Positions 505 through 32,744 of a stretch of DNA of 64,000 nucleotides are shown in pieces. Origin of the DNA: Escherichia coli (GTDB lineage: Bacteria; Pseudomonadota; Gammaproteobacteria; Enterobacterales; Enterobacteriaceae). The stretch is taken from NCBI RefSeq assembly GCF_045037415.1, contig NZ_CP173438.1. One strand, written 5' to 3'. The notes beneath the pieces are model-generated. The model was given only the letters and a program-made list of their open reading frames with translations, was not told the DNA's origin and searched no databases. Made by a program: the position numbers and the translations under genes. Each line of letters begins with the position of its first letter. Positions within the stretch are counted from its first letter, which is position 1.

Positions 505-530
505 ACTGCCCCTGTTTCGTTAAGCGATTA

Positions 531-1079
531 CTACCAGTGCCGTGCTGGCCCGGTATCAATATGCACAAAGTTACTACGTGGGTAATATCCTACACCACCT
601 GCGCGCATAGATAACGCGGCTTTGCGAATATTGCTTAACGCGATACCTTCAATGTGGAAATCCATCGCCTGGCCTTTGGTGTGATAGCTTTTCTTCGCTA
701 CTCCACGGCTGCGGGCGCGTAGTTCATTGTTGGTATCAATGGAACGATAACCGGAAATGAGTTGCACCGGTTTGCGGGTGCCTAACAACCCTTGCAGGCG
801 ATACAACTGGTCGAATAATCCTGGGTCGATGGACTTTATTTTGTTCGCGCGGTAATCGCGGAAAAAATGGTTAAGTTTTGCCAATTCTTCCTGAATATAG
901 CCTCTGCCATCGAAAAACTCCGCTTTGATTGACTCTCCGGTATGAAGATTATTGAGTGTCAAAATGCGCGGGCGTGGGGTAGAGAGTGTTGCAAACGCCG
1001 GGGTCGGCAGGATGGCGGCACCGAGTGCAACGCCACCAAGCGCCAGCAGTTTGCGGCGATTAGCGTCGAATTTGTCCAT
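531..1079 (-). CDS. mepK: Murein endopeptidase MepK (YcbK), Tat-signal periplasmic peptidase
   Basis: ORF 531..1088; twin-arginine-like signal MDKFDANRRKLLALGGVALGAAILPTPAFA; start set at Met4; identity by recall of YcbK and synteny. Confidence 0.7.
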   Translation of the reverse strand: MDKFDANRRKLLALGGVALGAAILPTPAFATLSTPRPRILTLNNLHTGESIKAEFFDGRGYIQEELAKLNHFFRDYRANKIKSIDPGLFDQLYRLQGLLGTRKPVQLISGYRSIDTNNELRARSRGVAKKSYHTKGQAMDFHIEGIALSNIRKAALSMRAGGVGYYPRSNFVHIDTGPARHW

Positions 1080-1259
1080 GATAATCAAGTCTACAGGTCA
1101 ATGTTATCGTTTATATGCACTTCTGGCGCACAAGAGGCACCTTAACCGCCCGTAAAGAAGACGTCAAGATGACTCAACCCCAGCAGTGACGGGGGCTGCA
1201 GAGAATCGCCCCCGATCATGCTAATTATTACGACAACTGATTTCCCCGAACTGCTTCAT

Positions 1260-3107
1260 TTACCTGATTAATTGTTCCGCTTTCGATACAATTTGCGAGC
1301 TGGATCGCGCAGGCAGATCATAATTGTAAATATCTGTACGATACTGGGTACGACCATCAGCACCAACAAAGGCCGTCAGATAGTAGAGATTCACCGGAAT
1401 CGACTGCCGAATATTGACGTAACGCGTATCGCCCTGCTTCAGCGCATCAGAAATACGTTTGTCATTCCATCCTGCATCCTGCAACAGCATATTCGCCAGA
1501 TCGGAAGCTTTATTCACTCGTACACAGCCTGAGCTCAATGCGCGTGTATCACGTTTGAACAGATTGTGGTTCGGCGTGTCATGCAAATAAATGGCCTCTG
1601 AACTCGGCATATTGAATTTATAGCGCCCCAGCGAGTTCCGTGGGCCTGGAGCCTGCTGGAAACGGAACGGTAAATTCGAGGCCGTGATTGTAGACCAGTC
1701 AACCTGCCATGGGTCAATCGCTTCTCTGCTGTTCCAGCCGCGCATCACCGTATAGCCATGGCTTTCGAGATATCCCGGATCGTTGCGCACTTTCGGCAGA
1801 ATATCTTTGCGTGCCAGAGTTGGTGGTACGTTCCACGGCGGGTTTACCACTACGTTGTTAAGTGCACTGCTCATCATCGGCGTTTTGCGATCGGGGCGAC
1901 CGACAATGACTCGCGAATCCAGCACCTGATTGCCGTTCTGATAGTAGACCAGCGAATAGGCTGGAATGTTAACCATGATCCCGGTAGAAAGCTCTGTTGG
2001 CAGCAAGCGCAATCGCTGGATGTTGAGTGCCAACACGCCAGCACGCTGGGCGGGCGTTACGTTTAACCAGTCACGCGTTGCCGGGCCAATAGCACCATCT
2101 GCTCCCAATCCTTGCCATGCCTGAAAACGTTTAACGGCTTCCACCAGTTCATTATCGTAGGCGGCGCGAACGGCAGGCGCAGGTTTACTACGAGACGTAG
2201 TTTGTTTGTCCATCAGCTTAGTTTCTGCTGTTTCAACAGTAACAGCCGATGGGCTGACTACCGCGTCAGTTGGCGTGTCATCGCCAGGTAGCGTAATTTT
2301 CGGTCCCCCGTCCAACATGCCTGTACGTTGCAATATTTCGCGCAACGCCGGTACGTCGTTACTCCACTGTCCTGGGCGCAACGTTGCTTTACCGGTCAGT
2401 TGAGGCCACGGTTTGGTGTCACTGAGTAAGGCCAGTAACGATTCATGCATCGCCGCATATTGCGGATGCTGCGGTGCCAGTCCTGCAACAAACGTCGGCA
2501 ATTGACCTTTATCCAGCGCCAGCTGCCATTGGTTAATCACCGAAAGCGGCGGCGTTGCAAGCGCATAAGGTTTACTGCTATATAGCCAGCGAGTGCCTTT
2601 GACCGGAATATTTGCAATGAAATGGAGATAGCCCATCATCGCATCAGAGAGCACCACGTCGCGTGCCATCCCGTTAACACCAGGATCGGTCAGTAACTCT
2701 ACCCATTTATTAAACTGCGGCTGGAAACCGGCAATCGCCACCTCTGCCAGCTGTTGCTGGAAGGCTTTAACAGCATCACGGTTTTCCCACATGGGTTGCA
2801 TATCGCGTGCGGCATACAACAATTGAAGCTGGTTAAGATAAACCGGCTTATAACCTGCGGGTAATTGAGATTCGATTTGCGTGCGGGCTTTTTCAGCCGC
2901 ACCTTCAGGCAATGGCTGGATCCCCGCCATTATTGCCGTGGCTTGCGCCTGCGGCAGTGCCTCGCCCTGTTCACTGACAGCCACCGGGCTGTCGCCAGGG
3001 ATTACTTCAGGCTCATCGGCCTGCGCATTGAACAGTGGAGCGAATGTTACGGCCAGGCACAAACTGATTGCCGACAGCCGACGACCACACATCATATTAA
3101 GCAACAT
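1260..3107 (-). CDS. ldtD: L,D-transpeptidase LdtD (YcbB)
   Basis: 615 aa; N-terminal signal peptide; C-terminal YkuD-type catalytic motif [11 protein letters not shown]...SSGCVRV; synteny upstream of mukB. Confidence 0.8.
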
Positions 3108-3330
3108 CCCTTGCCCCCTGTTTTTATCATACTCTGAATAGCCAGGCTGTTATTTTACGACTTGCCTGTACAACGCCAATACTCACGAAAGTATGACGAG
3201 CAAGCCTGTTACTCATCAGGCTTATCTTCAGTATATAAACGCCGATACGTTTTTACATAACCTAATGTAAAGAAGTTTAAAGAAAAGCGCGCCGTAATGT
3301 GCCACTTTTTTAGTGCAGAAACGGAGTTTT

Positions 3331-3361
3331 CGGAAAAAGAAAAGGCGGCATTGCTGCCGCC
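3331..3361 (-). terminator. Rho-independent terminator downstream of mukB
   Basis: Hairpin ggcggca-ttgc-tgccgcc (3344..3361) followed on minus strand by a U-run (complement of aaaaagaaaa at 3331..3343), 7 nt after the mukB stop. Confidence 0.55.
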
Positions 3362-3367
3362 TTAATT

Positions 3368-6300
3368 TTAACTCGCCTGAGAAGGCGCTTCGTCACTTCC
3401 TGGAAGCGTTTCAGGGAGTTGAGGCGCAAATCCTCGCAGGCCGACGACGTGAACGTGTTCGGTATTCTGGAAGACTTTACGTACCAGTTTATAGGTGGTG
3501 CCTTTCTCCGGGCTGATATTTTCCGGCGCTGCGATAATGAGCTGCATTTGCAAACGTTCACACAATTCAAACAGCGTGGCGATGGAACGGGCGTCCAGTC
3601 GCGCTGCTTCATCGAGGAACAGCAGGCGGCAAGGAGAGATATCTTTACCGCGCAGGCGGCGAGATTCATCTTCCCAGCTTTGTACCACCATCACCAGAAT
3701 CGACATACCGGTACCAATCGCCTCACCGGTCGACAATGCACCAGACTCTGCACGCAACCAGCCATCGGAACCACGGTTAACCTCAACTTCCATTTCCAGA
3801 TAGTTGCGGTAATCCAGCAGTTCTTCACCGATGGTCTGCGGCGTGCGCTGCCCCATATCAATCTGCGGGTTAAGACGTTGATACAGTTTCGCCAGCGCTT
3901 CTGAGAAGGTCAGGCGGTTGCTGTTAAACAGATCCTGATGCTGCTCGTGCTGTTCAGAGAGCACATCCAGCAGCATGGCGTGCGTTTCACGTACGTTCAC
4001 GTTCAGACGTACGCTGTTCACCTGGCCAAACGATACGTTCTGCAACCCCTGGTTGAGCATACGGATACGGTTCTGCTCGCGCTGAATGGTTTTGCGAATG
4101 ATGTTCGCCACGCTGCGGGAACTGATCGCCAGTTTCTGTTCACGAGAGGTTAATTCTTCGGTCAGACGGCTAAGCTCGATCTCCATCTGTTCGATAGCTT
4201 CCACCGGATCATCGGTACGAATAATATCCTGACGAATACGTTCACGCAGATGCTGATAAACCGCCACGAAGAACTGAATTTTACGTTCCGGACGTTTTGG
4301 ATCTTCCGACATCCGCAGCACGTCGCGCAGATGTTCGTTATCCGCCACCGCCAGACGCAGCGCACCTAACGCCTTATCCGACATGGAGCGCAAATCATCA
4401 GCGGAGAGATAAGCCAGCTCACGACGGTGTAAGCGACGCTCAACGCCATTATCTTTCACCATGCGCATCACCGCACACCAGCCCGCTTTGGCGGTCACTA
4501 CCTGCTCGCGCATCTCAAAGTAATCCCGCTCCAGCTTGCGCAGTTTACGGGTCAGGTTGTCCATCTCCGCTTCGCAGAAGGTAAGCGCTTTTTCCAGTTG
4601 ATTGCGTCGTGAACGGTTATTGCTCAGTTGCGCGTGCAACTCGTCACGGCGAATACGTGCCCGCTCTTCTGCCCCGCTATCAGCACGCACGCCGATATCC
4701 TGCAATTCACGTTGCAGATCGTTAAGTAGCTCTTTTTTGGTGTCATACGAACTTTTCAGCGAAGCCAGCACCTGGTTGTACTGATTCAACTGCGCTGCGT
4801 GTCCGCGCAACGCTTCACGAGCGCGGGTACGCTCCGCTTCCGCCTGTTCCAGACGTTCACGCAGTTTTTCGTTGAGATCGCTGTTACCGCTAAGCATTTC
4901 TGCCGAGTCAGAGTAGCTAAAGTGCGCACGACGCTGCACCACTTCCGTCAGGGCAAACGCCTGCTGACGGGCATCGCGCTGCATCTGCTGAGAGTACGCG
5001 TAATCTTCTTTTAATTGTTCGAACTGTTCCGGGTCGCTCTGCAATACCGAAACGATCGGCTCCAGTTTCGCCAGTTGATTGCCAAACTGCTGAACAAAAC
5101 GCGCGGCTTCCTGGGCTTCATCCAGACGTTCGCGGATTTCATCGACGCGATCCGCCAGGCTGTCATCAGCCAACAGGTTGAGACGCGGCAGAATGCGGTT
5201 CAGCGCCGTAACGCCCTCTTTCGCCTGCTCAAACTGAATACGCTGCTGCTGGTTATCATTTTCATGATTACTCAACGCCCGTTCCAGTTCGACGCGACGG
5301 CTGTTCAGTTGACGGATTTCTGCTTCCGGGTCAGACTCAAACGCCACCGCCAGATGACTGCCGATAAAGCGGCTGAACGCCTGATGCAGACGCTGGGTTT
5401 TCTGTACATCAAAGGAAAGCGTGGCGAAGCGTTCGGAAAGCACTTCCCGCTCGGCATGGAGGCTTTCAATACGGCTTTCACGCGCAGCACGACCAAACAG
5501 CGGCACTTCCGGGAAACGTGAATAACGCCACTGACGATCGGCGATTTTCACCACCACCGCTTTTTCCAGCTCATCAACGCTGAACACGCTGTCATCGAAT
5601 GACTGCGGATCCCCTTCGATCAAATAGAGATCTTCCGGGCAATCGGTCAAGCCTTCCAGGTGTTCGGTTACCTGTGACAGATCTGGCACCACGATGGCGT
5701 GGCGTGACGGGCCATACAGTGCTGAGAAGTACGGCGCATCTTCCAGGCTAACGTCGTCATAAATTTCTGACAGCAGCACACCACCAAAACGCTCCGCCAG
5801 CGCGTTCAGACGCTGATCTTCAGAACCACCTGGCTGGCTTAAACGTTCGATCTCTTCATCGACGGCGTTTTTGCGCGCGCCTACTTCATCGCGTTCAACA
5901 ATTGCCTCGCGCTCACGCTCCAGCAACTGTTGCAGAAATTCGGTGACATCCTGGCTGGAGGTGAACTCTTCGCCGCACTGTTCGCTCAACTGGTTGAGAC
6001 TGTTTTGCGCTGCCAGCCAAACCGGCGCACGCTGCATCAAACTCTGAATGCGAGACTGCAGCTGTTCCTGCTCCTGGCGCAGTGCCATCCGCTCTTCTCG
6101 GGCGTTAGAGACGCTATCGGAAAGAGAGGCAATGCGTGCTTCCAGCTCCTGATGCAGAGCTTCCAGTTCATCAATATCAAAATTCTTGCCCTGACGTTTG
6201 CAGAAATCTGCCAGCAGACGCTCAGCTTCTTGCTGCTCACGCAGACGCTGTTCCAGTTCGCTTAAGCGCATCCGCAACGGCTGAACCTGCTCTGCCAGGT

Positions 6301-7828
6301 GACGCTGATCGACCCCTTCGCGCAATAGTTCGCGAGCGACATCCCACGCCTCGTTACGCGCCAGCGGGCCGTTGATTGCCACCACCAGCTGATAAGCCTG
6401 CTCAAACTGGCTGTGCGCGGTTTGCGCCATGCTCATTTTCTGCTCAAGAGAGAGCATTTTTTCGGTCGCTTCCAGCTCTTTCGCCTGGAAGGTTTCCAGC
6501 CATTCGGCAGCGCTGTCGGCGGTTAAGTCCGGCAGATGGCACAGTTCTTTGGCACGATTAAGCGCAGCAATCGCCTGGTTATACTGGATCGCGCGCGTTT
6601 GCTGGACGTCCAGCGCCTGCTGGTAGTCAGCAAGCTGGCTTTTCAGCTCGTCCACTTCCAGTTCGGCAGCTTCCGCACGAGCCTCGTTCTCTTCCTGGCG
6701 TTCGATGGCTTCTGCCACCACTTCGTTTTGCTCTTCCAGACGGATCTGCAGCTCATCGAGATCCGCTTCGTAGCGTTCGATCTTCTCCTGCTGACGCAGT
6801 GCGGTTTGCACCAGGTTCAGGTGATCGCTGGCCGCCTGATAATCCGCTTCCAGATCGCCTTCGGCACCGTTGTGCTCAGCCAGCTCTCGCGCCATGTCGA
6901 CGTGTTTGTACTGCTCAGCCGCCAGTTGCTGACGCGAAGTATGTAGCTCGCGACGAAACTCCAGGGCCTTATCGAGATGAACACGGCGCTCGTTGGCGTG
7001 ACGCATGTAGTCCGCCGCCACGTAGTTGGTGGCTTCGCTGATCAGATGCTTAAACAGGTCACGGTCCGACTGGGTGACACGAATCGCTTCCAGCGTCATG
7101 CGGTTTTCACGCAGCGCCGCTTCCATGTCCTGGAACGCTTTCCACACCCCACTGTTTTCCGGCAACAGGTAGTCGCGCAGAGAACGAGTAATGGCGCTGG
7201 AGATCCCGCCATACAGCGAGGCTTCGATCAGACGATAGAATTTACTACGGTCAGACGCTGAGCGCAGACGACGCGCGATGATGCCCAGATCGAACATCAG
7301 CGAGTGGTAATCGGTAATGGAGTTGAACTGTTTAAACTGCACGCCTTCCATCGCCTCGAGCTTGTCTTTCAGCTCGTTAAGCGGCAGCACGCGCGCCTGG
7401 CGTTCGTTCAGAGTTTCGGTCACCAGTTGTGTCGGCTGCACCGACATCGGCAGTCCCTGAATGGCAAACGGCTTGATATCCACTTTACGATCGCGTCCGG
7501 CAACCTGTTGCAGACGCACACCGACCACCACGCGCTGGTGACGCGAGTTAATGGTGTCGAGCATCGAATAACAGACACCCGCTTTCAGCTTACCGTGCAG
7601 ACCTTTATCGCGCGAACCGCTGGTGGCCCCGGCTTCCGTAGTGTTACGGAAATGCAGCAGGGTCAGATCGGGGATAAGCGCCGTAACGAACGCCGCCATG
7701 GTGGTGGATTTACCCGCCCCGTTACCGCCAGAAAGCGTCGTGACCAGCTCGTCAAGGTCAAAAGTTCGGGCAAAAAAGCCGTTCCAGTTAATCAGCGTCA
7801 GTGAGCGAAATTTACCGCGTTCAATCAT
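3368..7828 (-). CDS. mukB: Chromosome partition protein MukB (SMC-like condensin)
   Basis: 1486 aa; N-terminal Walker [10 protein letters not shown]; very long coiled-coil; mukF-mukE-mukB order. Confidence 0.95.
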
Positions 7829-8532
7829 TATTCTTCCTCTCCGCTATCTGGCTGACTCTCTTCGGTTTCATCGTTGAGTTGCAGATGATTTTCAATCGGC
7901 ATTGCTTCACCATCACGAATCAGGCGACGCTGTGCTTCACGGGGATCGTCGCCAGCACGCACATCGGCGCCGAAGCGGAACACCGATTCGGTAATGCGGA
8001 ACTTGCTGCTGTCGTGGCCCATAAACCACACCATGCCTAAACGACGCAGACGGTTGAGCGAAGAACGTACTTTTTCCTGCAACTTCTGACGGTCAACGTC
8101 TGAACCGGTTGAACGGTTGTTCACCAGTTTCAGCAGTTTCGCTTCATCGGCCAGGGTGAGCAGTTCGTCGTACAGTTCCTGTTGAGTAAAAATCCCCTCA
8201 TTCGCCAGCCGTTCCGGGCTGAGATAGAGATAACAGAGGATTTTCCCGACCATCATATCCAGTTCCGACAAGACGGAACGAGGGATCAGCGTGGTGGAAC
8301 GTGGGCGTAGATAGAAGAACCCTTCCGGTGCACGAATAAGCTCAACGTTATAACGCGCGTAAAACTCTTCCAGATATTCCTGAAAATCCATCAGGAATGC
8401 ATGATTATCCAGTTCGTCGAGGCCAATATGGCGGCCTGAACGTAAGGCGCTATCCAGCGCCGGAAATAACGGATTCGCCAGCGCCTGCGCCAGCTTAACC
8501 GGCATCACTTGTTCAATATTTGTCGATGACAT
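7828..8532 (-). CDS. mukE: Chromosome partition protein MukE
   Basis: ORF 7828..8559; start likely at internal [16 protein letters not shown]; acidic C-terminus; located between mukF and mukB. Confidence 0.85.
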
Positions 8533-9835
8533 GCGCCTGTACCTTGGCTCCGTAATCATTAATCGGCTGCCATTTCGCTGGCAGTCCGGTGAAATCTGCT
8601 TGCGCTACGCCAAGACGTACCGCCTGATCAATAACAATGCGCGCAACGTCAAAGTGACGTGCACGCGGATACTGTGACAGATATTCGCGTACCACCAGAC
8701 CAAGATCCAACGGCACTTGTCTGGTTTTGTACACGGCAAGTTGTTCTTCGATGATCGCCGCCAGCTGTTCGCGGATCTCGTTAAACTCTTCGTACTCCAG
8801 ATCCTCAGGAAGTTCCCCAGTCACTTCTTCATCGCGCAGTACCATCTCTTCGTCACGCATATCCAGCAGACGATCGGCATTGGCATAAGTTAGCGCCCAC
8901 GGCTCATCAAAATAGGTTTGTACCGACTGACGTAACCGCTGAGCAAAGACGCGGTTTTTATCCATATCGATCGCAGTACGAATAAATTTGTGTACGTGGC
9001 GGTCGTAGCCAATCCACAAGTCGATGGATTGCTGGCCCCAACTGATAATACGGTCGAGTTTGCTCTGAAGATCGAACACCAGACGATCGACAAAATGCAG
9101 GTCGTCATGGGTCATCGTCGCATCCTGAATGCGTAACAGGTTGGCCTGCAATTTATCGCCTGCCGCTTCCAGCGTATCCTGCAATTCACGCAGCGTTCCG
9201 GAAGTTTCTGAAAGCAACAATTCACAGCTGGAAATCGCCGCCCGCCAGTCTTTGTTCAACAACTGGGCGATATCATCCTTCACCTGCTGCTGCTGTTCAT
9301 CCATCAGACGTTGCGTCAGGTCGATACTGTCGAAAATTTCTGCTACCGAATATTTCAGTGGCGCATAAACATTGCGGTGCCAGTGAAATTCATCACCGCC
9401 CTCTTCGGCGGCATCTGCTGCGCGTTTGAGCTCACCCGCCACAATCGACAATTGCATAGAAAGGCGCAGCGTAGAAAACTCGCGCTGACGAATGTAATAG
9501 TCAGTGATGCCGATGCCGAGCGGCGTCAGACGGTAAATTGCGTTCCCTTCCGCCTGCTCGCTGGTAAAGCGGTTCAGCAGACGTTGACGCACCATGTCGT
9601 TGATCGCGTTGTTGGCGCGCACGCCGATGGTTTCGCTGGTTTGCTCAAACGCATCACTCACATGGCGGAATGCATCCACCAGCTCGCCTTCACTCATCTC
9701 ACCATCCAGACGCTCGCCGTTCAGCGTGGCAACCGCCAGCAGAAAAGAGAGTCGGTCTACCGGCAGCGAGATGGAGAAGTCATTTTTTCTGGCCCAGGCA
9801 ACCAGTTCGGGGACTGTCTGGGAAAATTCACTCAT
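8513..9835 (-). CDS. mukF: Chromosome partition protein MukF (kleisin)
   Basis: 440 aa; N-terminal [22 protein letters not shown]; mukFEB operon context. Confidence 0.9.
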
Positions 9836-10617
9836 ACTTTATCCTTGCTCTGCGGTTTGCGCGCGGTGACATGAATATAACGCCCCAGGGTAATATACGG
9901 TTCCTGACGGCAATAACGCGTTTCTAATTCAAGTAATGCTTCATAGCAGTCGCGCTGCTGGTGCTTCTCACGCAGATAATCATGAAACACGCGAACGCCT
10001 GTCTTACCCAGAATTTGCCAACCAGCTTCTTCCAGCCACAGATAAACCTGCGCCGGGTCGCGTGGATAATCTGGCGAAAGCGTCCGTTTTTTCTTTTTCG
10101 GCATTCCCGCCTGCACGTAATCAAAATTCCCGGCGACCATGTTATGCATCAACAAACCATGCGCATTGTAGAACATTAACGACAACACGCCGCCTGGACG
10201 CAACACTGACCACAGGGTCTGTAATACGCTGCGGGGATCGGCCACCCACTCGAGCACCGCATGGAACAATATCAGATCAACGGGCGTTTCCAAATGCGAA
10301 GCAACATCCTGAGCGGCGCAATGTATAAATTGCATGTTGTCGCTCACACCTTTTGCTTCTGCCGCCTGTTTTGCGCGGTCGATCATCTGCGCAGAAAGAT
10401 CGCATAAAATGACCTGATGCCCGCGCTCGGCCATTTTGATTGCGGTCTGCCCTTCTCCACCGCCAGCATCCAGCACACGCAGTTTTTGCGGGCCTATTTC
10501 TGCCAGCACGCGATCGAGATCCTGCCACAGAATAGCCTGTCGAAGCTGCCCTTTGGTGGTGCCGTAAATGTTACGGGAAAACTTTTCCGCAATATCATCA
10601 AAATTGCGATCCTGCAT
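9832..10617 (-). CDS. cmoM: SAM-dependent methyltransferase CmoM (SmtA)
   Basis: ORF 9832..10629; class I methyltransferase motif VLDAGGGEG; directly upstream of mukF as in E. coli; start set at MQDRNFDD. Confidence 0.8.
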
Positions 10618-10752
10618 TGCTTTCTCCACCGGTTGGCTAAGACGTTTTCTGATAAAGACGCTATTTTGTCACAGCCACGGCGAGAATGAACCCGTCTGGT
10701 GTAATATCGCTGGCGATCCCTTGCTATATGGTTAAAAAAGGAACCAGAAAGG

Positions 10753-11532
10753 ATGCTTTTTACACTGAAAAAAGTGATTGGCAATATGTTGCTGCCACTT
10801 CCGCTAATGTTGTTGATTATTGGCGCTGGCCTGGCGCTGCTGTGGTTTAGCCGTTTTCAAAAAACCGGGAAGATTTTTATTAGCATTGGGTGGCTGGCGC
10901 TCTTGTTATTGAGTTTGCAACCGGTAGCCGACCGCCTGCTGCGTCCCATCGAAAGCACCTATCCGACATGGAATAATTCGCAAAAAGTGGACTATATCGT
11001 GGTGCTCGGAGGTGGTTATACCTGGAACCCGCAGTGGGCGCCGAGCTCTAATTTAATCAATAACAGTCTGCCACGCCTGAATGAAGGTATTCGCTTATGG
11101 CGCGAAAATCCGGGATCAAAACTGATCTTCACGGGAGGCGTAGCTAAAACCAATACGGTGAGCACAGCCGAAGTCGGTGCCAGAGTTGCGCAATCGCTGG
11201 GCGTGCCGCGCGAGCAAATTATCACCCTGGATTTGCCAAAAGATACCGAAGAAGAAGCTGCAGCAGTGAAACAGGCGATTGGTGACGCACCTTTCCTGCT
11301 GGTGACCTCCGCATCACATCTGCCGCGGGCGATGATCTTTTTTCAGCAGGAAGGGTTAAATCCGCTACCAGCCCCGGCGAATCAGTTGGCCATCGACTCG
11401 CCGCTTAATCCGTGGGAACGGGCAATCCCTTCTCCGGTTTGGTTGATGCATAGCGACCGCGTTGGCTATGAAACGCTTGGCCGGATCTGGCAGTGGCTGA
11501 AAGGTTCGTCAGGCGAGCCACGGCAAGAGTGA
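10753..11532 (+). CDS. elyC: Envelope biogenesis factor ElyC (YcbC), DUF218 membrane protein
   Basis: 259 aa; two N-terminal TM helices then YdcF/DUF218-like domain; synteny. Confidence 0.7.
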   Translation: MLFTLKKVIGNMLLPLPLMLLIIGAGLALLWFSRFQKTGKIFISIGWLALLLLSLQPVADRLLRPIESTYPTWNNSQKVDYIVVLGGGYTWNPQWAPSSNLINNSLPRLNEGIRLWRENPGSKLIFTGGVAKTNTVSTAEVGARVAQSLGVPREQIITLDLPKDTEEEAAAVKQAIGDAPFLLVTSASHLPRAMIFFQQEGLNPLPAPANQLAIDSPLNPWERAIPSPVWLMHSDRVGYETLGRIWQWLKGSSGEPRQE

Positions 11533-12402
11533 TTTTGATGCCAGATCGAAGTTACGCCGATTAAATCGTCCGGTGTTGACCAGTTGCGCAACTTCATCCC
11601 ATAACACATACAACCAACGCCGCCAGATGAACGACTCCGCCACTGGCGCGCGTTGCAGATAACTCCAGAGCAAATCTTCCGCCAGAGAATTATCCATTAG
11701 TCGGAACAGTTCGTATTCTCGCGGTGCCCAAAGCATTAGTCCCGGTCCGACCATCGCCAGTAACTGATCGCTGCGCGAATCTTTCAGCATGCTGCGTAAA
11801 CAGAAGTTACCGTGAATCAGTACACAATTGTCGTTAAAGCCTTCAAATAATGCCGGGAGACATTCGCGAGTGCGAAACAGGATCCGCTTATCCTGCATCG
11901 ATAGACCGGTGTTATTGAACTGATTGAGCGTGGTCCATAGCACTTCAACATGTTGCCGGTACCATGAGGGCCAGAAATTTTCCTGAGTATTGTCGACCGC
12001 GCCGACGCAACCACGACTGTCCTGACGGTGCCAGGCCAGTAAGGCTTCAACGATTTGGTCTTTGAGTTGTTCCCAGCGTTCTGGTGTTCGGGCTGGTGCC
12101 TCCACCGAAACACCACGCATTCGCTCCAGTAGCAGGACATCGGGGCCGGGGTGTTCTTCATGCGTCATCACACCATAAATAGTCGGCATACGGACAGTCC
12201 CACTTCTTGCCAGCATGGTGGTTTTCCATGCCAGTTGTCGGGCTTTTCCGGGCGTACTAAAGCTTCTTGCCATTAACGGCATTGGGTTTCCCTGGCTGTC
12301 ATACAAAGCCCACAACGCCGTATCCGCTTTTTCATTGACGCACTCAATACGACTGAGTTTTTCGCCCAGTAAATGGCTTAATTCGGCACGCAGCTGTTCC
12401 AT
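11509..12402 (-). CDS. ycbJ: Putative phosphotransferase YcbJ
   Basis: 297 aa; convergent with elyC; synteny with kdsB; identity by recall. Confidence 0.65.
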   Translation of the reverse strand: MEQLRAELSHLLGEKLSRIECVNEKADTALWALYDSQGNPMPLMARSFSTPGKARQLAWKTTMLARSGTVRMPTIYGVMTHEEHPGPDVLLLERMRGVSVEAPARTPERWEQLKDQIVEALLAWHRQDSRGCVGAVDNTQENFWPSWYRQHVEVLWTTLNQFNNTGLSMQDKRILFRTRECLPALFEGFNDNCVLIHGNFCLRSMLKDSRSDQLLAMVGPGLMLWAPREYELFRLMDNSLAEDLLWSYLQRAPVAESFIWRRWLYVLWDEVAQLVNTGRFNRRNFDLASKSLLPWLA

Positions 12403-12555
12403 TCAGATTACCCTCATAAAAGCTACTGCTTTCATAATGAGCGCCAATATAAAAGATGTCACCTGAATGAGATCAATTGTTGAAAAGAAAAATTGAGGAA
12501 AATCGTAACGGTACGACACTCCTCCCAAAATTGGCTGGAGTGTCGTGAAGTGAAA

Positions 12556-13481
<926 letters not shown>

Positions 13482-13532
13482 AGTTCCTCCAGATGGATCG
13501 GGTTATGAATGCATAAATCTTATCATAATCAT

Positions 13533-25288: not shown

Positions 25289-26004
25289 CTGGCCTCCAGT
25301 TTCTGTTGTTCCTGCCCACTGACCGGGCGGTGCAGTCTGACGTTCTGCCCTTCACGAAACCCCGCATAGCGCGAGGCGTCGCCATTGCGGCTTCTTCCCG
25401 GTTTACGCGCCCTGGTGGTTTGCGTCTGCGGGTATTTATGTTCCAGCCACTGCTGCATCAGTTCACGCTCATCATCGGTCAGGGCAAAGGACTGTATTTC
25501 ACTGATAACGGCCAGCACCCAGCCTTCGGCAAACTGGTCTCCACGGCTGGTGCGGGTGGCGGTTTTTATTCTTTTGTTCTGTGCACTGATATACTGCTGA
25601 CGCGCCTTTTTCAGCTGACGGGCCAGCACTTCCCAGGTGTATGCAGCCAGTGCCGCACGTTCCCGGTTGCCGTAGAACCCCACAGACGGATGCGTGCCGG
25701 GGTGAATGATGGAGTTAACACCAAATACCTCGCGGATGATGTTCATCAGGCCCAGCATGTAGCGCGGTGGACGGAGACTGCCTGTCGGCCAGTAGTGACT
25801 GATGGTTTCATCAATATCACTCATAGCAATGTCGGAATGTGTGATGCCGTGAACATCCATCAGTTTACGGGCTCGGCGCAGTGCCAGAGCGGCCTCGTGC
25901 GGGTTGCCGGATGCGGCCAGCGCCAGCAACTTTTTCAGTTTCTCAATGTGTTTATTCTGGTCTGTCATTGTTCTGTATCTCCGGTATTTTTCTGCCGTTT
26001 CCAT
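25285..26004 (-). CDS. DUF2786-like hypothetical protein
   Basis: 239 aa; N-terminal IEKLKKLLALAASGNPHEAALALRRARKLMDVHGI signature recalled for DUF2786. Confidence 0.4.
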   Translation of the reverse strand: METAEKYRRYRTMTDQNKHIEKLKKLLALAASGNPHEAALALRRARKLMDVHGITHSDIAMSDIDETISHYWPTGSLRPPRYMLGLMNIIREVFGVNSIIHPGTHPSVGFYGNRERAALAAYTWEVLARQLKKARQQYISAQNKRIKTATRTSRGDQFAEGWVLAVISEIQSFALTDDERELMQQWLEHKYPQTQTTRARKPGRSRNGDASRYAGFREGQNVRLHRPVSGQEQQKLEAR

Positions 26005-26180
26005 GCCCGGACAGCGTCGGACAGCTCTTTCAGGCTGTATGCTGCTTTAAGCTTTTCCCATAACCACTGTGTTGTTATGTGCATCAGCAGGGCAGCCAGG
26101 GCTGCCCCCGCACTGAGGCATGTCGCCAGGCCAGTAAGAATCAGTGTCCATGCGGTGATTTCCCTGAGTATGTCAGCCAT
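25965..26180 (-). CDS. Small membrane protein (71 aa)
   Basis: One or two predicted TM helices (WTLILTGLATCLSAGAALAALLM). Confidence 0.35.
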   Translation of the reverse strand: MADILREITAWTLILTGLATCLSAGAALAALLMHITTQWLWEKLKAAYSLKELSDAVRAWKRQKNTGDTEQ

Positions 26181-26194
26181 TGAATGCCTCCCGG

Positions 26195-26491
26195 TTACTC
26201 GTTCGTGTAAATCACGCCCAGTCGTGCAGCCAGACGTTCCAGTTTTTTCTGTTTGTGGAAGTCAATCAGCCGGTCCATCCCCTGAAGGCGCAGTTGCTCT
26301 GTCATGATTTCCACGTCTGCCAGCTCTGCCGCGAGGTCACTTTCGCTGCCCTGTCCGTTCAGGTTGCGGGCGGCACTGGCCGCCAGTTCAGCGGCCTCTT
26401 CTGCCAGTTTCAGGGCCTGTGCGTCCGGCCCGAAACGCTGCAGGGCCAGACGGTAGAGGGCGGTGCGGGTGAGTTCGGTGTTTCGTGTCAT
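26195..26491 (-). CDS. MazG-like all-alpha NTP pyrophosphohydrolase (putative)
   Basis: 98 aa; acidic motifs LKLAEEAAELAASAAR and DLAAELADVEIMTEQL resemble the EExxE...DxxELxD signature of the MazG/HisE-like family. Confidence 0.45.
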   Translation of the reverse strand: MTRNTELTRTALYRLALQRFGPDAQALKLAEEAAELAASAARNLNGQGSESDLAAELADVEIMTEQLRLQGMDRLIDFHKQKKLERLAARLGVIYTNE

Positions 26492-26500
26492 GCCGCGCCC

Positions 26501-26773
26501 TCAGTGCTTCCGGCTGACGGTGATGTGCAGGCCGCCTTCTGCAGTGGTTTCCATCCGGTACGGCACCTCATGCTCTGCCGTGTGGGTGAGTGTGTTCATC
26601 AGTACCTGCAGGGCAGCCTCCTTTCCGTTGGTCGCCACAATGGCCTGTGTGGCCATGCTGATTAGCGCCGTCAGGACGTGCTTCACATCGGTGAGGTCGC
26701 GGCATTCACACTCGTTGACATAGTGTTCAACAAGGGTTCGGGTGCGCTGTCGTGCTTCCTGTGGGGTAATCAT
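26501..26773 (-). CDS. Hypothetical phage protein (90 aa)
   Basis: Start/stop coupled to neighbours (ATGA-type overlaps). Confidence 0.35.
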   Translation of the reverse strand: MITPQEARQRTRTLVEHYVNECECRDLTDVKHVLTALISMATQAIVATNGKEAALQVLMNTLTHTAEHEVPYRMETTAEGGLHITVSRKH

Positions 26774-26964
26774 TGCGAGTCCTCCCTGTCAGGGCGGGAG
26801 AATTCCATGACGGGCACGTCTGCCGAAAAATGCTGGCTGCAGTACGGGCAGACCAGGGTGACGCGTACCGCAGGGATGTGGTATTTACCGGACATCACGG
26901 CGATGGCGCTGTGAAAACGCAGGGCTGTTATATCCCTCTCGCACTGAATACATTTAAATATCAT
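26770..26964 (-). CDS. Small zinc-ribbon protein (64 aa)
   Basis: CxxC (CIQC) and CxxC (CPYC) pairs 35 residues apart. Confidence 0.4.
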   Translation of the reverse strand: MIFKCIQCERDITALRFHSAIAVMSGKYHIPAVRVTLVCPYCSQHFSADVPVMEFSRPDREDSQ

Positions 26965-27061
26965 GATTTAATTCTCCTCTGTTTCCGGCGTGCAGAAGCC
27001 CGCGGCGCTGACGTCGGAATAAAAAAGAAAATGTTTTTATTAAATAATTAACGTGGTGTGT

Positions 27062-27592
27062 TTACTGCACATCCTGCTCAAAAGGAATTATTGAAAAATC
27101 CTCAATGTCGCTTTTAATGGAAATACCGGGAATATTTTTCACGGCCTCTTTTTCATTCAGGATAGCGTCTTTATTTATTTCCTCTTTTACACGAATAAAG
27201 CGCTCAAGCCCCAGACGTCTCAGTAATTCAATAACATTATCCGCCCCACGGATACTGACTGATGGCGGACGGTTTCGCCACTGCACCTCGCCGGTGGTGA
27301 GGTTAGCGAACTTCACCTTCCCGTTGCCGGTCAGTTCATCACGGTGTGCCTCACACCATGTCTGAATACCGGACTGCAGTTCGGCCATGCGTTTTTTCAG
27401 GCTCTCGGTGAGCGGGGCATAACGTGCGGTGATATCGCCAATGGCGTCATTCATTTCTGTTTCAGCCCTGACCAGTTCACGTTGTGCGTCACCGAGTAGT
27501 CTGATTCCCTCAATGACCTCTTCACGTGTCCCCGGCACCCAGAGTGCTGCTGCGGCCTTGATACGTTTTGCACCTTTTGTACTTTTTGCCAT
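27062..27592 (-). CDS. gam: Host-nuclease inhibitor Gam (Mu Gam-like)
   Basis: 176 aa; strong similarity to recalled Mu Gam over its length (ETEMNDAI..., WCEA.RDELT..GKVK.ANL.TG.V.WR.RPPSVSIRG, DFSIIPFEQ). Confidence 0.75.
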   Translation of the reverse strand: MAKSTKGAKRIKAAAALWVPGTREEVIEGIRLLGDAQRELVRAETEMNDAIGDITARYAPLTESLKKRMAELQSGIQTWCEAHRDELTGNGKVKFANLTTGEVQWRNRPPSVSIRGADNVIELLRRLGLERFIRVKEEINKDAILNEKEAVKNIPGISIKSDIEDFSIIPFEQDVQ

Positions 27593-27619
27593 TTTTTATG
27601 ATTTCTCCAGTTGTGCTGA

Positions 27620-27889
27620 TTACCACAAAGATTCCGGCCACACGACGCGACAGCCGTGCAGTTCGAAAACGCCCTGACGGAAATATCCCCTGTGGTCATG
27701 TCCGGTATACAGATAACAGGCCTTTCCCTGCTCAAGCATGCGCATGCAATGCGCACTCCGGGAAACGCGGATGACAGGTTTGTTACCCCTGATGGTGATG
27801 CTTTGTACATCCGTGTTCGTCGCCTTAAGCGCCATAATGGCTGACTGCACTTTGCTGATTTGCTGGTTGATACCTGTGGTGGATTTCAT
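27620..27889 (-). CDS. Hypothetical early protein in the Kil position (89 aa)
   Basis: Between MuB-like gene and gam; Cys/His-rich; no confident family. Confidence 0.35.
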   Translation of the reverse strand: MKSTTGINQQISKVQSAIMALKATNTDVQSITIRGNKPVIRVSRSAHCMRMLEQGKACYLYTGHDHRGYFRQGVFELHGCRVVWPESLW

Positions 27890-27891
27890 TA

Positions 27892-29097
27892 TTAAACCCC
27901 TTTGACAACGTCAGCGTTGACCTGTGGAACCCCGATTTCAGCGGCCAGATTCATGGCGGCTATTACCAGGTTACTGACGGCCAGCGGATACAGCAGGCTG
28001 ACCATATTTTTACGGTGACTTCCCGGATTGCTCAGGCGGGCACGTATGGCATCCACTGCACCGGCGTCCATAATGTCCGTCAGCTGTTTACCGGCCCGTT
28101 GCAGTTTGAACGTCAGAAATTCTTCAAGGTTATTGTCCAGAGGCAGAAGTTCGACCACCTCACAGCGCTGAACGACTTCACGGACTTCCATATTGCGTTC
28201 AGACAGTTTTGTCGCCAGTTCCGGCTGGCCAATCAGCACGATGGACAGCAGTTTTTTGAAACCGGACTCCAGCTCAAAAAAGCGTTTGAGGTGTTTCAGT
28301 GTCGGAATGGGCAGACTGTGGGCCTCCTCAATCACCAGAACGTGGCTGAACCCCGCCTGGCTGCTGTCTTTCAGGACGCGATGCAACTGGCGAAAACGGG
28401 CGTCCTGACTGCGTCTGATGCTTTCCAGTGGTGCGATGGTACTGATAATGGCTTCGGCAATAGCTGCTGCCTTCAGGGTTTTCCCTTTCACATCGTTGTC
28501 TTCCATAGCGATGATGTATGGCTCGATAACAATTACCGGCGCATTCTCGCGGTTGATACGTTCAGTCAGGTCGCGGCGCAGCGTGGATTTACCCGCACCG
28601 GACTCACCGATGACGGCCATAAACCCACCATGACGGGCTGTCTGGTACAGCGCCTCACGCACGTAGCGAATGTCCGGGGTGGTGAACACATCATCAGAAC
28701 CCTGCATGGCTTCGTCGGCGAACGGGTCACGGAAAAGACCAAACGCTTTTTTGGTTGCTGGAAATAACACCTGTTTTTTGAGTAACATATTCTCTTCCTC
28801 ACTGAGGCTCGTTTTATCTGTGGTACCCGCTGTACGGGGCGTGGCCGCGCCCTGTACAGCATCAAAACTCTTCGTTGTATCAATCCCCTGACTTTCCAGC
28901 CAGGACGCAAGACGCCGGCGCACTTCTCCGGGGCTGGTGCGGGGCCACGCGTTATGATTCACAATCTGGGCCAGCGTGGCCTCAGAAACATCGACAGCTC
29001 TCGCCACCACCGCCTGTGGAATACGGGCCTCTTTCAGTTGCTGCTTCAGTACCAGCATGTTTCCCTCCTCAGTTGCCGTTAACAATGCTGATAACAC
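27892..29097 (-). CDS. Transposition ATPase (MuB-like, AAA+)
   Basis: 401 aa; N-terminal HTH-like region; Walker A VIGESGAGKST; Walker B-like VLVIEEAH; immediately downstream of transposase. Confidence 0.65.
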   Translation of the reverse strand: MLSALLTATEEGNMLVLKQQLKEARIPQAVVARAVDVSEATLAQIVNHNAWPRTSPGEVRRRLASWLESQGIDTTKSFDAVQGAATPRTAGTTDKTSLSEEENMLLKKQVLFPATKKAFGLFRDPFADEAMQGSDDVFTTPDIRYVREALYQTARHGGFMAVIGESGAGKSTLRRDLTERINRENAPVIVIEPYIIAMEDNDVKGKTLKAAAIAEAIISTIAPLESIRRSQDARFRQLHRVLKDSSQAGFSHVLVIEEAHSLPIPTLKHLKRFFELESGFKKLLSIVLIGQPELATKLSERNMEVREVVQRCEVVELLPLDNNLEEFLTFKLQRAGKQLTDIMDAGAVDAIRARLSNPGSHRKNMVSLLYPLAVSNLVIAAMNLAAEIGVPQVNADVVKGV

Positions 29098-30838
29098 TGC
29101 TGCGGGCCGGTGTGGTCAGCGTGGCCATGACTTCATCCAGTGCGGCTTCCGGTACGCCGTCCGGGTACTGTGCCGTTAACTGGCGGTAATGTTCCGGCGT
29201 CCAGGTAAGGCCGTCGGCGCTGAACTTATCGCGCAGGGCTTTCGCGGCCTCCACATGAGTCATGGGACGTTGTTCAGTGCGCGGCCCGCGTACGTCAGAG
29301 GCCTGACCACGCTTCGGCATATAGGCCGGAAGTGTGGTGTCGTCGATATGTTTATACGGGTCAAGCCGCCCGCCGAACGGCAGCGCCTTCGCCTTGCGTG
29401 CGGCGGCTGCATCTGCGGCGTTGTCTGTACCGGTAACCAGCGCTTCGGTTTCTTTTGCCGCCATCTGTGCCGGGGTTTCCGGCAGGGCTTTGTAACTTTC
29501 GCCAAATACCGCCGCGCCTTCAGCAAAGCCAAACTCGTTCTTTCTGACCTCTTCGACCAGGAAGAACGTCTCGTGGCCGTCCTCACCGGTCAGAACCACC
29601 TGTGCCACATCGCTGCGCCATGGGTTACGGGTAATCATCAGTTTTTCACCAACCAGTACGCCCGGTACCGTTGATACGTCAAATTCAGTGCCCCGGAACG
29701 AGACACGAAGTTTTGGCGTGACTTTGCGGAGTTCTGGTGCCGCCACAGCCAGTTCACGACATACCTCAACGGAAGGCGCTTTTTTCAGCTGCTCAGCAGT
29801 AATCTTCAGCCAGATATCCGTGCGGGTTTTACCGTGGCGGCTGTGAACAGCCGTGGCGTTAAAGTGGCTGCGCCATTTCGCGGCCAGCGCGTTGAGTTCT
29901 TCCAGACTGTGAACCGGCCGGAACTTCAGACCCGGCTCCAGCTTGCGTTCGATAATGTCACGCGCCTTTTCCACCTGTCCGGTGGCGCGGGCGTTATGCG
30001 GCTTGTGCGCTATCAGGTCGATGCCCAGTGAGCGGCACATGTTTTTCGTCATACCCGCGGTGTTTGCCGAGCCGGGGTCGAGATAGAGTATTTTCGGCAC
30101 GCCGTGCAGCACGTCTGCGCCGCCACGCTCCTGCATGGCGTTGATAAGCACAGAACACAGGTTCTCACCTGATTCCGCGCCCGTCACATACTCAACGTAA
30201 ATCCAGCCGCTGGCATGGTCGGTAATCTCGTAACTCCACACGCGGTCACTGGCGATACGGGCAAGGTTAGCGGGCTTGTTCTTGTAGAACTTCGCGCTGT
30301 CCATCACCTGCAGCCCTTTATGTCCATTGCTCAGGTAGTAAAGCGTGCAGAGTGAGGCGTCAATCTGCCAGACATGATTGGGATGCAGACTGGCCACTTC
30401 GGTATGTGGTGCAGGGGCATCCAGTTGTTCCGGGTGCAGGCCATAGTTACGCAGAGCACGGCTGATGGCATCTTCAGACAACGGGAAAAACTCACTGGTG
30501 GTTTCATCTGTTCTGCCTGCGGTGATAAAGCCGTTAGCCCGCAGGGTTTCCACTGCATCTGCGATGGAATAGAGACGCTTACCGTTCTTGCGGGTGGCCT
30601 CACGCAGTGTGGCAGATATCAGCGCGGCTTCGTCGCGGGTCAGGGCGCTGCGCCCGGCATCGGCGCGTTTTTTGCGTTTATCAGTCACAGATACCTCCTT
30701 CAGCCTGCGCAGCAGAGTGGCGCGGGACATGCCAAGTTCAGCACAGGCAGCGTCGTATATTGCACCGCGTTTACCATGCCCCGCGTCACGTGCCGCGCGG
30801 GCTGTTTCAACCAGTTTTTCAGTCAGTGCCGGGGTCAT
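29069..30838 (-). CDS. DDE transposase (Mu A-like, rve/integrase core)
   Basis: 589 aa; N-terminal HTH; catalytic core HVWQIDASL...YLDPGSANTAG...ATGQVE consistent with D,D,E triad. Confidence 0.8.
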   Translation of the reverse strand: MTPALTEKLVETARAARDAGHGKRGAIYDAACAELGMSRATLLRRLKEVSVTDKRKKRADAGRSALTRDEAALISATLREATRKNGKRLYSIADAVETLRANGFITAGRTDETTSEFFPLSEDAISRALRNYGLHPEQLDAPAPHTEVASLHPNHVWQIDASLCTLYYLSNGHKGLQVMDSAKFYKNKPANLARIASDRVWSYEITDHASGWIYVEYVTGAESGENLCSVLINAMQERGGADVLHGVPKILYLDPGSANTAGMTKNMCRSLGIDLIAHKPHNARATGQVEKARDIIERKLEPGLKFRPVHSLEELNALAAKWRSHFNATAVHSRHGKTRTDIWLKITAEQLKKAPSVEVCRELAVAAPELRKVTPKLRVSFRGTEFDVSTVPGVLVGEKLMITRNPWRSDVAQVVLTGEDGHETFFLVEEVRKNEFGFAEGAAVFGESYKALPETPAQMAAKETEALVTGTDNAADAAAARKAKALPFGGRLDPYKHIDDTTLPAYMPKRGQASDVRGPRTEQRPMTHVEAAKALRDKFSADGLTWTPEHYRQLTAQYPDGVPEAALDEVMATLTTPARSSVISIVNGN

Positions 30839-30853
30839 AGCTTGTCTTCCCTG

Positions 30854-31171
30854 TTATCCGATTCTGGCGGCAATTTTTCTGGCGAGGTCGCACAGTGTTT
30901 CGCCATCGCAGGTTTTCACCACGGTATTTACCGGTTGCGGTGCAACTACCGGGCGTAATGCTGACTGATTCTGCAGACGTCTTATCTGCTGCATCAGCAT
31001 CACCTCCATCGTCAGTACAAACGGGTGCGTCTCCTGTGCGGGTACGCAGATTTCACCGGAAGGGGTCACCACGCGGAAACCCTGCACCATCTCCGGCAGC
31101 AGATTACACAGTGCGTGCCCCAGTGCCTCCGGGCTGTCCATCAGGGTATTTTGTGTGTTATTCGTATTCAT
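30854..31171 (-). CDS. Hypothetical protein (105 aa)
   Basis: Operon-coupled between transposase and the 306-aa ORF; no motif recognised. Confidence 0.35.
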   Translation of the reverse strand: MNTNNTQNTLMDSPEALGHALCNLLPEMVQGFRVVTPSGEICVPAQETHPFVLTMEVMLMQQIRRLQNQSALRPVVAPQPVNTVVKTCDGETLCDLARKIAARIG

Positions 31172-32091
31172 TACTGCATATCCTCCGGTCGGTTGATTTC
31201 AGGTTCCGGTTCGGTCAGCCAGGCGGGGGCATCGTTACCCGATGGAGCGGCCTCAAGGTCAAACGTCTCACGTAATGCATGAACACTGCGTTCAATCTGG
31301 CAGACCAGACCGGCCATGAAATCTCTGGGGGTATCGATCATGTTTTTGGTGCAGTATTCACACAGGGTCTCAAAAACACTGGACAGCCGGACGGCGATAG
31401 CCGATTCGGCCTCAACCGCTAATGCCGTCACTTCCGCCCGCAATTTTTTCAGTTCTTCGTCTGGCGGCGGAGGTTGCAGGCGCGATTTCTTCTCCAGTTT
31501 TGTGGCCAGTTCGTTGATTTTTTCGTCCTTTCCGGCAAGCACCTGTTGCTGAGCTGCGTTGGTTTCGCGCGCTTCACGCAGGGCGGCCTTCAGTTCGCGG
31601 CTGGTCATGCGATCAATATCATCAAGCGTTGCACCGGCGACGGTTCCACCATCAGCTAATGCGTCGAGTTCTTCGTCATCCAGAACCATCAGTTCATATA
31701 ACTTGGTTTTTCCCAAAACGCTCAGCGCTGAGCGTTTTGGCTGTTCATCTCCATTGCCGAGAAATTTCACGCTGGCCTGCATCATGCGACGAGCTACCTG
31801 TGGTGCTAATCCGAGGTCGTTTTCCAGAATATTTGTGAAATCACCATGCGGTTCATTTTCTTTTAAGATGATCAGCCGCTTACCCGCTTCCAACATAGAT
31901 TCAGCACTCTGCGCCATATAAAAACGTGCTTCGTGAACGATGCGTTCACGTTCATAAGGCAGTCCATCACCAAACTGCTGCATGATCTCCATGCGATGCT
32001 GTGTCATGGCATTCAGGCTGACGTTGAGATCATCCGACAGCGGTACATCGGCGTTCAGTTCAGTGTTAATCGGTGATTTGGTACGTCCCAT
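31171..32091 (-). CDS. Hypothetical coiled-coil protein (306 aa)
   Basis: Long predicted coiled-coil in the central region; located between ner and transposase, a position empty in Mu. Confidence 0.4.
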   Translation of the reverse strand: MGRTKSPINTELNADVPLSDDLNVSLNAMTQHRMEIMQQFGDGLPYERERIVHEARFYMAQSAESMLEAGKRLIILKENEPHGDFTNILENDLGLAPQVARRMMQASVKFLGNGDEQPKRSALSVLGKTKLYELMVLDDEELDALADGGTVAGATLDDIDRMTSRELKAALREARETNAAQQQVLAGKDEKINELATKLEKKSRLQPPPPDEELKKLRAEVTALAVEAESAIAVRLSSVFETLCEYCTKNMIDTPRDFMAGLVCQIERSVHALRETFDLEAAPSGNDAPAWLTEPEPEINRPEDMQ

Positions 32092-32101
32092 TGATTACTC
32101 C

Positions 32102-32416
32102 TTACAAACGACTACCTGAAATGACACGTTGGTTAATTTCGTTAATACGATCCTGTGCACGTGCCATCTCGTTACTGTGGGCCATGGCGATCTGCAGTAA
32201 CTGGATGCCCGGTGCAAAACGTCCGTTCTCCAGTTTCAGAGCCAGCCCTTCTTCAATGAGGGTGTTGAGTGCCCGGTTGATGTTTGCCGGTGACTCGTGC
32301 AGTGCTGTCGCCAGTTCACCGTTAGAAATACCGTTCAGGGCATGACCGCGCAGCGCTTTGAGTACCCGGAGGATGCGACTGCCGGAGCTTGAAACATTCG
32401 TCTTACTCATCTGCAT
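32102..32416 (-). CDS. Putative winged-helix DNA-binding protein (104 aa)
   Basis: Segment RILRVLKALRGHALNGISNGELATALHESPANINRALNTLIEEGLA resembles an IclR/MarR-type wHTH. Confidence 0.4.
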   Translation of the reverse strand: MQMSKTNVSSSGSRILRVLKALRGHALNGISNGELATALHESPANINRALNTLIEEGLALKLENGRFAPGIQLLQIAMAHSNEMARAQDRINEINQRVISGSRL

Positions 32417-32462
32417 ACCTCTTTTGCGATATGTGATAACCTTTTACAAAGACTCAAAATAT

Positions 32463-32651
32463 TTAGGCCGCCTGAGCTGTTGATTTCAGTCCCAACTTCA
32501 CGGCGATTTCATGGGATTTACCGTAACGGGCTTTGGTCTGCCCGTTGAGAACGCGGTATACCTCATTGCGGTTGTAGCCGTTTTCTTCTGCCCAGCGGGT
32601 GAAAGTGATCCCGCGCTGGCGGAAGAGAGCTTTGACTTGTTCTGCAGTCAT
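32463..32651 (-). CDS. ner: Ner-like DNA-binding regulator
   Basis: 62 aa; first gene of the leftward early operon, divergent from repressor; Ner/Nlp-like HTH by recall. Confidence 0.6.
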   Translation of the reverse strand: MTAEQVKALFRQRGITFTRWAEENGYNRNEVYRVLNGQTKARYGKSHEIAVKLGLKSTAQAA

Positions 32652-32703
32652 CGTTGTCTCCTTTGTTGATGCAATGATGTTTGCCTTATATGTGTTAGAT
32701 TAT

Positions 32704-32721
32704 TGCTCATAATTATGAGCA
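32704..32721. promoter_or_regulatory. Candidate operator: perfect 18-bp palindrome TGCTCATAATTATGAGCA in the ner/repressor divergent intergenic region
   Basis: Read directly; centred in the 93-bp gap between divergent ner and repressor starts; half-site ATGAGCA recurs at 32745. Confidence 0.5.
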
Positions 32722-32744
32722 TATCAAGATAGAGATTCACTTTT

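Follow-up and report, generated by a model that had tools for sequence, protein, structure and literature searches.

What does a 98-codon gene that the databases call hypothetical contribute to a transposable phage? We studied this gene in a 64,000-nucleotide stretch of Escherichia coli DNA (contig NZ_CP173438.1; hereafter the window), which is chromosome carrying a BcepMu-like (Bcepmuvirus) transposable prophage. The gene product, 98 amino acids (aa) long, is identical to RefSeq WP_001295929.1 and to XRL29418.1 of phage PhiKM, and its product name is 'hypothetical protein' in both GenBank and RefSeq. Judged from sequence profiles and a structural model, it is almost certainly a minimal nucleotide pyrophosphatase of the MazG/HisE type. 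The gene and its two acidic motifs lie as follows.

26195-26491 (including the stop codon), minus strand: MazG-like gene, 98 codons, ATG start; from the open reading frame (ORF) list and the annotation of identical records
26387-26401, minus strand: first acidic motif EExxE, codons E31-E32-A-A-E35, in helix 2; predicted Mg2+ ligands
26315-26326, minus strand: second acidic motif ExxD, codons E56-L-A-D59, in helix 3; predicted Mg2+ ligands

Family and fold of the 98-aa protein

The protein matched PHROG 2245, 'nucleoside triphosphate pyrophosphohydrolase', over residues 1-97 (E=5.5e-34) and three other MazG-like PHROGs more weakly. An exhaustive phmmer search with it returned 1625 cluster representatives at E<=1e-3. 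In a 64-sequence family alignment, whose members are mostly 35-45% identical, E31 and Q66 are invariant, and A16, G21, Q25, E32, E35, L36, E56, A58, D59, I62, K83 and L87 are at least 90% conserved. The metal-binding acidic tetrad of the superfamily is thereby present as E32-x2-E35-x20-E56-x2-D59. In all-alpha nucleoside triphosphate (NTP) pyrophosphatases this tetrad takes the form EEXX(E/D)...EXXD, examples being E119/E122/E138/D141 of Mycobacterium tuberculosis MazG and E46/E49/E74/D77 of the Campylobacter jejuni dUTPase (PMC10014863). The family profile pairs EExxE with EEMGE and ExxD with EELGD of Bacillus MazG 5ie9.

Structure prediction agreed with the profiles. An AlphaFold2 model built on the family alignment was confident (predicted local distance difference test score, pLDDT, 95.7; predicted template modelling score 0.81) and all helical, with the all-alpha helical-bundle fold of the MazG/HisE type. 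Foldseek against AFDB50 gave 26 matches at E<=1e-3. Many are about 90 aa long and named 'NTP pyrophosphohydrolase MazG putative catalytic core domain', with template modelling (TM) scores of 0.75-0.84 and 26-39% identity; AFDB neighbours of equal length and fold overall span TM 0.75-0.98 and 26-96% identity. Nothing sets the protein apart from PHROG 2245 or from these AFDB-InterPro MazG-core proteins of about 90 aa, the EExxE...ExxD motif being common to both. The earlier note on this DNA had read the ORF, with its paired acidic motifs (E31-E32-x-x-E35 and E56-x-x-D59), as a MazG-like NTP pyrophosphohydrolase and had proposed structure prediction as a check; as far as fold and superfamily are concerned, that assignment stands. 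Several AFDB50 neighbours of about 90-100 aa are called 'Antitoxin' in UniProt (e.g. A0A661Q2K1, A0A550JLR0 and A0A2N6EVX1), and one 165-aa relative is called 'Terminase small subunit'. Both names are probably automatic mis-annotations.

Several results with the protein itself were negative. Pfam MazG (PF03819) gave no match at E<=10, a Pfam scan of the protein alone found only PRA-PH (PF01503) at a sub-threshold E=0.029, and Foldseek with the model found no significant match in the PDB. A single-sequence phmmer search of the PDB likewise returned only chance helical matches (IWS1 and designed repeats). Among the 64 family members, 21 matched Pfam MazG at E<=0.1 and three at E<=1e-3. Since some relatives match Pfam MazG and the 98-aa protein does not, the link to that family is transitive only. 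Searched against the PDB, the family profile found Bacillus MazG 5ie9 at E=0.025, with weak matches to integron iMazG (2q5z, 2q73) and YpjD (2gta); these and Sulfolobus 1vmg share about 20% identity with the protein at non-significant E values of 0.025-0.2. The MazZ structure of phage S-2L (7ody) ranked 34th against the model in Foldseek, with a weak E=2.6. Membership of PHROG 2245 and of the all-alpha NTP pyrophosphohydrolase superfamily is nonetheless firm in our view; the protein is not HisE and not formally Pfam MazG. That superfamily reportedly comprises MazG, HisE and dimeric dUTPase, a grouping attributed to Moroz et al. in 2005.

The gene itself is real. Pairwise Nei-Gojobori comparison of 13 homologues (58-95% aa identity) gave a ratio of nonsynonymous to synonymous substitution rates (dN/dS) of 0.08-0.24, and the frame is therefore under purifying selection. 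Two plus-strand ORFs over the locus (26180-26665 and 25306-26307) were rejected. They run antisense to the conserved gene array, are unannotated in all records examined and are artefacts of the GC-rich coding region.

Proposed activity and competing explanations

We consider it reasonably probable, from the sequence and the model, that the product, encoded in the early operon of the prophage, acts as a single-domain, all-alpha, Mg2+-dependent NTP pyrophosphohydrolase of the MazG/HisE superfamily. Its catalysis, oligomeric state, expression timing and substrate we infer as follows. E31, E32 and E35 of helix 2, with E56 and D59 of helix 3, would bind one or more metal ions that activate a water molecule. 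The water would then cleave the alpha-beta phosphoanhydride, converting the nucleotide to a (deoxy)nucleoside monophosphate and pyrophosphate, whilst conserved basic residues of the C-terminal helix (K83 and its neighbours) may hold the phosphates. Like other superfamily members, the protein is probably active as a homodimer or tetramer; this proposal draws indirect support from three relatives with tandem copies of the domain (P0050, P0061 and P0089). Probable co-transcription with the transposition and replication genes from an early promoter would place its action in lytic, transpositional replication.

The substrate class may be either dNTP/NTP or (p)ppGpp. MazG-like pyrophosphatases are common in phages, and the few characterised ones differ in their tested substrates: dGTP and dCTP, dGTP for Z-genomes, or ppGpp. 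Our best guess is (d)NTPs, with a role in sanitation or rebalancing of the pool for phage DNA synthesis. By analogy we hold this class about as probable as not and favour it over (p)ppGpp, which seems an unlikely substrate, because the syntenic gp06 of phage BcepMu (see below) resembles the dNTP-specific enzymes MazZ and DCTPP1. The MazG of cyanophage S-PM2 and the MazZ of S-2L are, like the 98-aa protein, phage-encoded all-alpha NTP pyrophosphatases, and both act on dNTPs. They serve GC-biased dNTP recycling or Z-base synthesis, whereas companion genes for these processes were not seen in the prophage.

The best surviving alternative is an alarmone hydrolase or anti-defence factor of the type of Atd1, from Pectobacterium phage PcCB7V. 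Hydrolysis of (p)ppGpp at the onset of infection or induction would then avert stringent-response shutdown and keep alarmone-dependent toxins or abortive-infection pathways from being activated. Atd1 is itself a minimal MazG-like domain that cleaves ppGpp with a Km of about 50 uM and leaves the tested ribonucleoside triphosphates intact, and it protects against TIR-STING and retron-TIR, blunting TIR-based abortive infection (bioRxiv 10.1101/2022.06.09.495361). From the description in that paper, Atd1 is probably QQG33500.1 (86 aa; 2104-2364, minus strand, in our PcCB7V locus L084), which carries the motifs EEVEEL...EMSD and lies two genes from a nucleotidyltransferase (NTase) gene. GenBank names it 'phosphoribosyl-ATP pyrophosphatase', and its family, PHROG 6408, has the label 'unknown function'. 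It resembles the 98-aa protein in size and in its twin acidic motifs, which hhalign lines up with those of our family, and a location in the early operon would suit host takeover or counter-defence. That alignment is however non-significant (E=0.12), the hidden Markov model (HMM) of the 98-aa family found nothing in PcCB7V, and the identity of QQG33500.1 as Atd1 is itself drawn from a description. Atd1 further differs in belonging to another PHROG (6408) and to a lytic Vequintavirinae phage, where it sits beside an NTase and outside any transposable-phage early operon. (p)ppGpp was for a long time the presumed substrate of cyanophage MazG, yet that enzyme does not hydrolyse it and prefers dGTP and dCTP (PMC6850273). 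PADLOC gave no match at E<=0.1 for the 98-aa protein or five of its neighbours, and there is no tie to defence genes nearby. We thus regard an Atd1-type role as unlikely. Similarly doubtful is the broader proposal of a counter-defence enzyme of transposable phages, which would destroy an alarmone, an immune signal or a toxic nucleotide in the manner of Atd1, or else offset a nucleotide-targeting defence. Were it true, the interval between the MuB-like gene and GemA would be an anti-defence slot in which MazG-superfamily enzymes are swapped in response to host immunity.

It is less probable still that the protein is catalytically inert, retaining the MazG fold alone and working by binding, for instance as a regulator, as a sponge for nucleotides or in partnership with the small proteins encoded beside it. 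Five acidic residues at least 90% conserved in a family of 35-45% identity are hard to explain without metal-dependent chemistry, and the 'Antitoxin' names of relatives, as unverified automatic annotations, do not speak for such a role. That a phage has acquired HisE, the phosphoribosyl-ATP pyrophosphatase (PRA-PH; PDB 1yvw, 6j22, 7bgm) of histidine biosynthesis, is very improbable, and HisE membership was rejected: PRA-PH/HisE matches were sub-threshold only, with a TIGR03188 score of 14.6 bits far under the curated equivalog cut-off of 42.7, Pfam PRA-PH was matched at E<=0.1 by 10 family members against the 21 for MazG, E. coli already has HisIE, and the gene has no histidine-pathway context here, its family being spread over unrelated phages, where the neighbours are terminase, methyltransferase or RNase H genes instead of his genes.

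The early gene array of the prophage

Positions 24000-29200 of the window match Escherichia phage PhiKM (genus Bcepmuvirus) at 100% identity, and in E. coli chromosomes the same DNA is a prophage adjoining ycaL/cmk/rpsA. The prophage was found in 375 of 5,426 complete E. coli genomes, counted where one place covered at least 80% of a 20-kb query spanning the gene. Its minus-strand early genes are listed below, with the sites discussed in the text.

24050-32727, minus strand: early gene array of the prophage; from ORFs, annotations of identical DNA and synteny in 63 related loci
32727-32699, minus strand: sigma-70-like site TTGATA-17-AATAAT, upstream of the Ner-like/regulatory genes; a 10/12 consensus match only
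29069-30838, minus strand: transposase (DDE); ORF and annotation
27892-29097, minus strand: MuB-like ATPase (ExeA-family); ORF and annotation
27062-27592, minus strand: Gam; ORF and annotation
26770-26964, minus strand: 64-aa protein with two CxxC pairs, zinc-ribbon-like, PHROG 3401
26501-26773, minus strand: 90-aa protein, PHROG 3691
26498-26502, minus strand: Shine-Dalgarno sequence GAGGG of the MazG-like gene, 6 nt 5' of its ATG; read directly from the sequence
25965-26180, minus strand: 71-aa predicted membrane protein, PHROG 3958
25285-26004, minus strand: DUF2786 protein, PHROG 421
24411-24860, minus strand: GemA; ORF and annotation
24050-24439, minus strand: Mor; ORF and annotation

The array runs from the Ner-like/regulatory genes through the DDE transposase, the MuB-like ATPase, an 89-aa ORF, Gam, the 64-aa ORF and the 90-aa ORF to the MazG-like gene, and on through the 71-aa membrane ORF, DUF2786 and two small ORFs to GemA and Mor. 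The earlier note had placed the gene in the early region, and its position within this Mu-type array bears that out. The 64-aa, 90-aa, 71-aa and DUF2786 genes immediately around it are themselves conserved in phages. In all 63 IMG/VR loci that carry a homologue (57% identity or higher), the MazG-like gene occupies the same interval, and around it Gam, the 90-aa ORF, the membrane ORF and a 76-aa ORF are variably present. These loci were chosen via the MazG-like gene and show its conserved position, not its universality.

Spacing within the array is tight. The upstream 90-aa gene ends in a TGA stop codon (26501-26503) that overlaps the GAGGG of the 98-aa gene, an arrangement suggestive of translational coupling of the two in an operon. 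The 71-aa membrane protein gene begins 12 nt past the stop codon of the 98-aa gene and has its own GGGAGG. Such close spacing is typical operon packing. The site at 32727-32699 is the strongest sigma-70-like site of the early region and might serve as early promoter of the entire minus-strand array, including the MazG-like gene. The promoter and terminator scan overall performed no better than on shuffled sequence (7 sites against 6.4 expected), and the same scan found no convincing terminators downstream of this site. The promoter-like site and the lack of terminators would fit co-transcription of the MazG-like gene with the transposition genes.

Prophage copies in other strains carry insertion sequences that the copy in the window is without. 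IS1 splits gam in strain AH21C062 (L002 7563-8869, NZ_CP196276), and ISEc23 of the IS66 family is annotated inside the matched span of many other E. coli genomes. These interrupted copies suggest that the prophage is decaying in some lineages.

Distribution, the shared early slot and natural variants

Across 50,697 phage records, tblastn with the 98-aa protein found only PhiKM, Klebsiella KP12, Escherichia Phi06_2974 B and Klebsiella Kp4866-3; the MuB-like protein of the prophage is common to 69 phage records. The family HMM found nothing in Mu 1-12000, BcepMu 1-14000 or B3 1-9000, in line with the earlier note's remark that the gene is absent from canonical Mu. More distant relatives turn up in unrelated phage settings, either flanked by terminase and portal with a DNA methyltransferase adjacent, or in the company of genes for RNase H and repair. 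The PHROG 2245-type family is thus a mobile phage accessory gene and is not Mu-specific.

BcepMu, the type phage of the genus, nonetheless has an enzyme of the same superfamily in the same place. Its gp06, annotated 'pyrophosphatase' (2668-3105, minus strand, in our BcepMu locus L085), lies downstream of the MuB-like gp08 and gp07 and upstream of GemA/Mor. It carries the motifs SEVAEAME...EVELAD (E-x2-E...E-x2-D) and belongs to PHROG 5658, and its family profile matched S-2L MazZ in the PDB at E=6e-4 and also DCTPP1. Through AH2 gp25, the literature connects BcepMu gp06 with E. coli MazG (HHpred probability 99.76%; PMC3483164). Together with phiE255 gp37 it represents a MazZ/DCTPP1-like branch that shares both the superfamily and the early-strand genomic slot with the 98-aa protein; unlike the latter, members of this branch are 129-145 aa long and have invariant residues of their own. 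Neither HMM detects the other family (that of gp06 found nothing in the window, and that of the 98-aa protein nothing in BcepMu), and hhalign between the two gave a meaningless alignment (E=0.11). The attempted link was not significant, and we treat the two as separate families of one superfamily.

Two branches of one superfamily thus fill the same early-operon position in BcepMu-like phages, whilst Pseudomonas B3 and Mu have neither. By sequence and synteny, the slot between the MuB-like gene and GemA/Mor looks like a case of non-orthologous replacement within the superfamily. Recurrent filling of one early slot by unrelated MazG-superfamily families is mildly interesting and suggests that their activity is selected for in transpositional replication.

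The gene is otherwise an ordinary kind of phage accessory enzyme, itself an unannotated member of its family. The NTP pyrophosphohydrolase label was already known from PHROGs and, for some members, from JGI/InterPro-derived names, and MazG-like genes were known in phages including BcepMu (PMC3483164). Our literature search found no biochemical characterisation of any PHROG 2245 member and no paper on this family or on a MazG-like gene in enterobacterial Mu-like phages. Correct annotation is a small practical gain for a gene that is still 'hypothetical' although its prophage is carried by about 375 of the 5,426 complete genomes. The prophage also offers a tractable E. coli system, open to induction and clean deletion, for finding the role of such enzymes.

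Several relatives depart from the single-domain form. Klebsiella/Enterobacter-type relatives (L041 and L062, at about 8001-8510; proteins P0012, P0029 and P0031, 169 aa) are extended at the C terminus by a conserved stretch of about 70 aa, with LPxRELLEDWCGAVPNSAFIGA, that stands in place of the separate 71-aa membrane ORF of the window. The homologue L059 has E56K in its ExxD motif, and in L065 and the 74-aa P0043, named for Candidatus Erwinia dacicola, residues 36-56 between the motifs are missing; L059 and L065 may be natural inactive variants. P0050, P0061 and P0089 are tandem duplications of the domain of about 90 aa, some with one copy degenerate in its acidic motifs, and duplicates of this latter kind recall the two-domain architecture of E. 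coli MazG.
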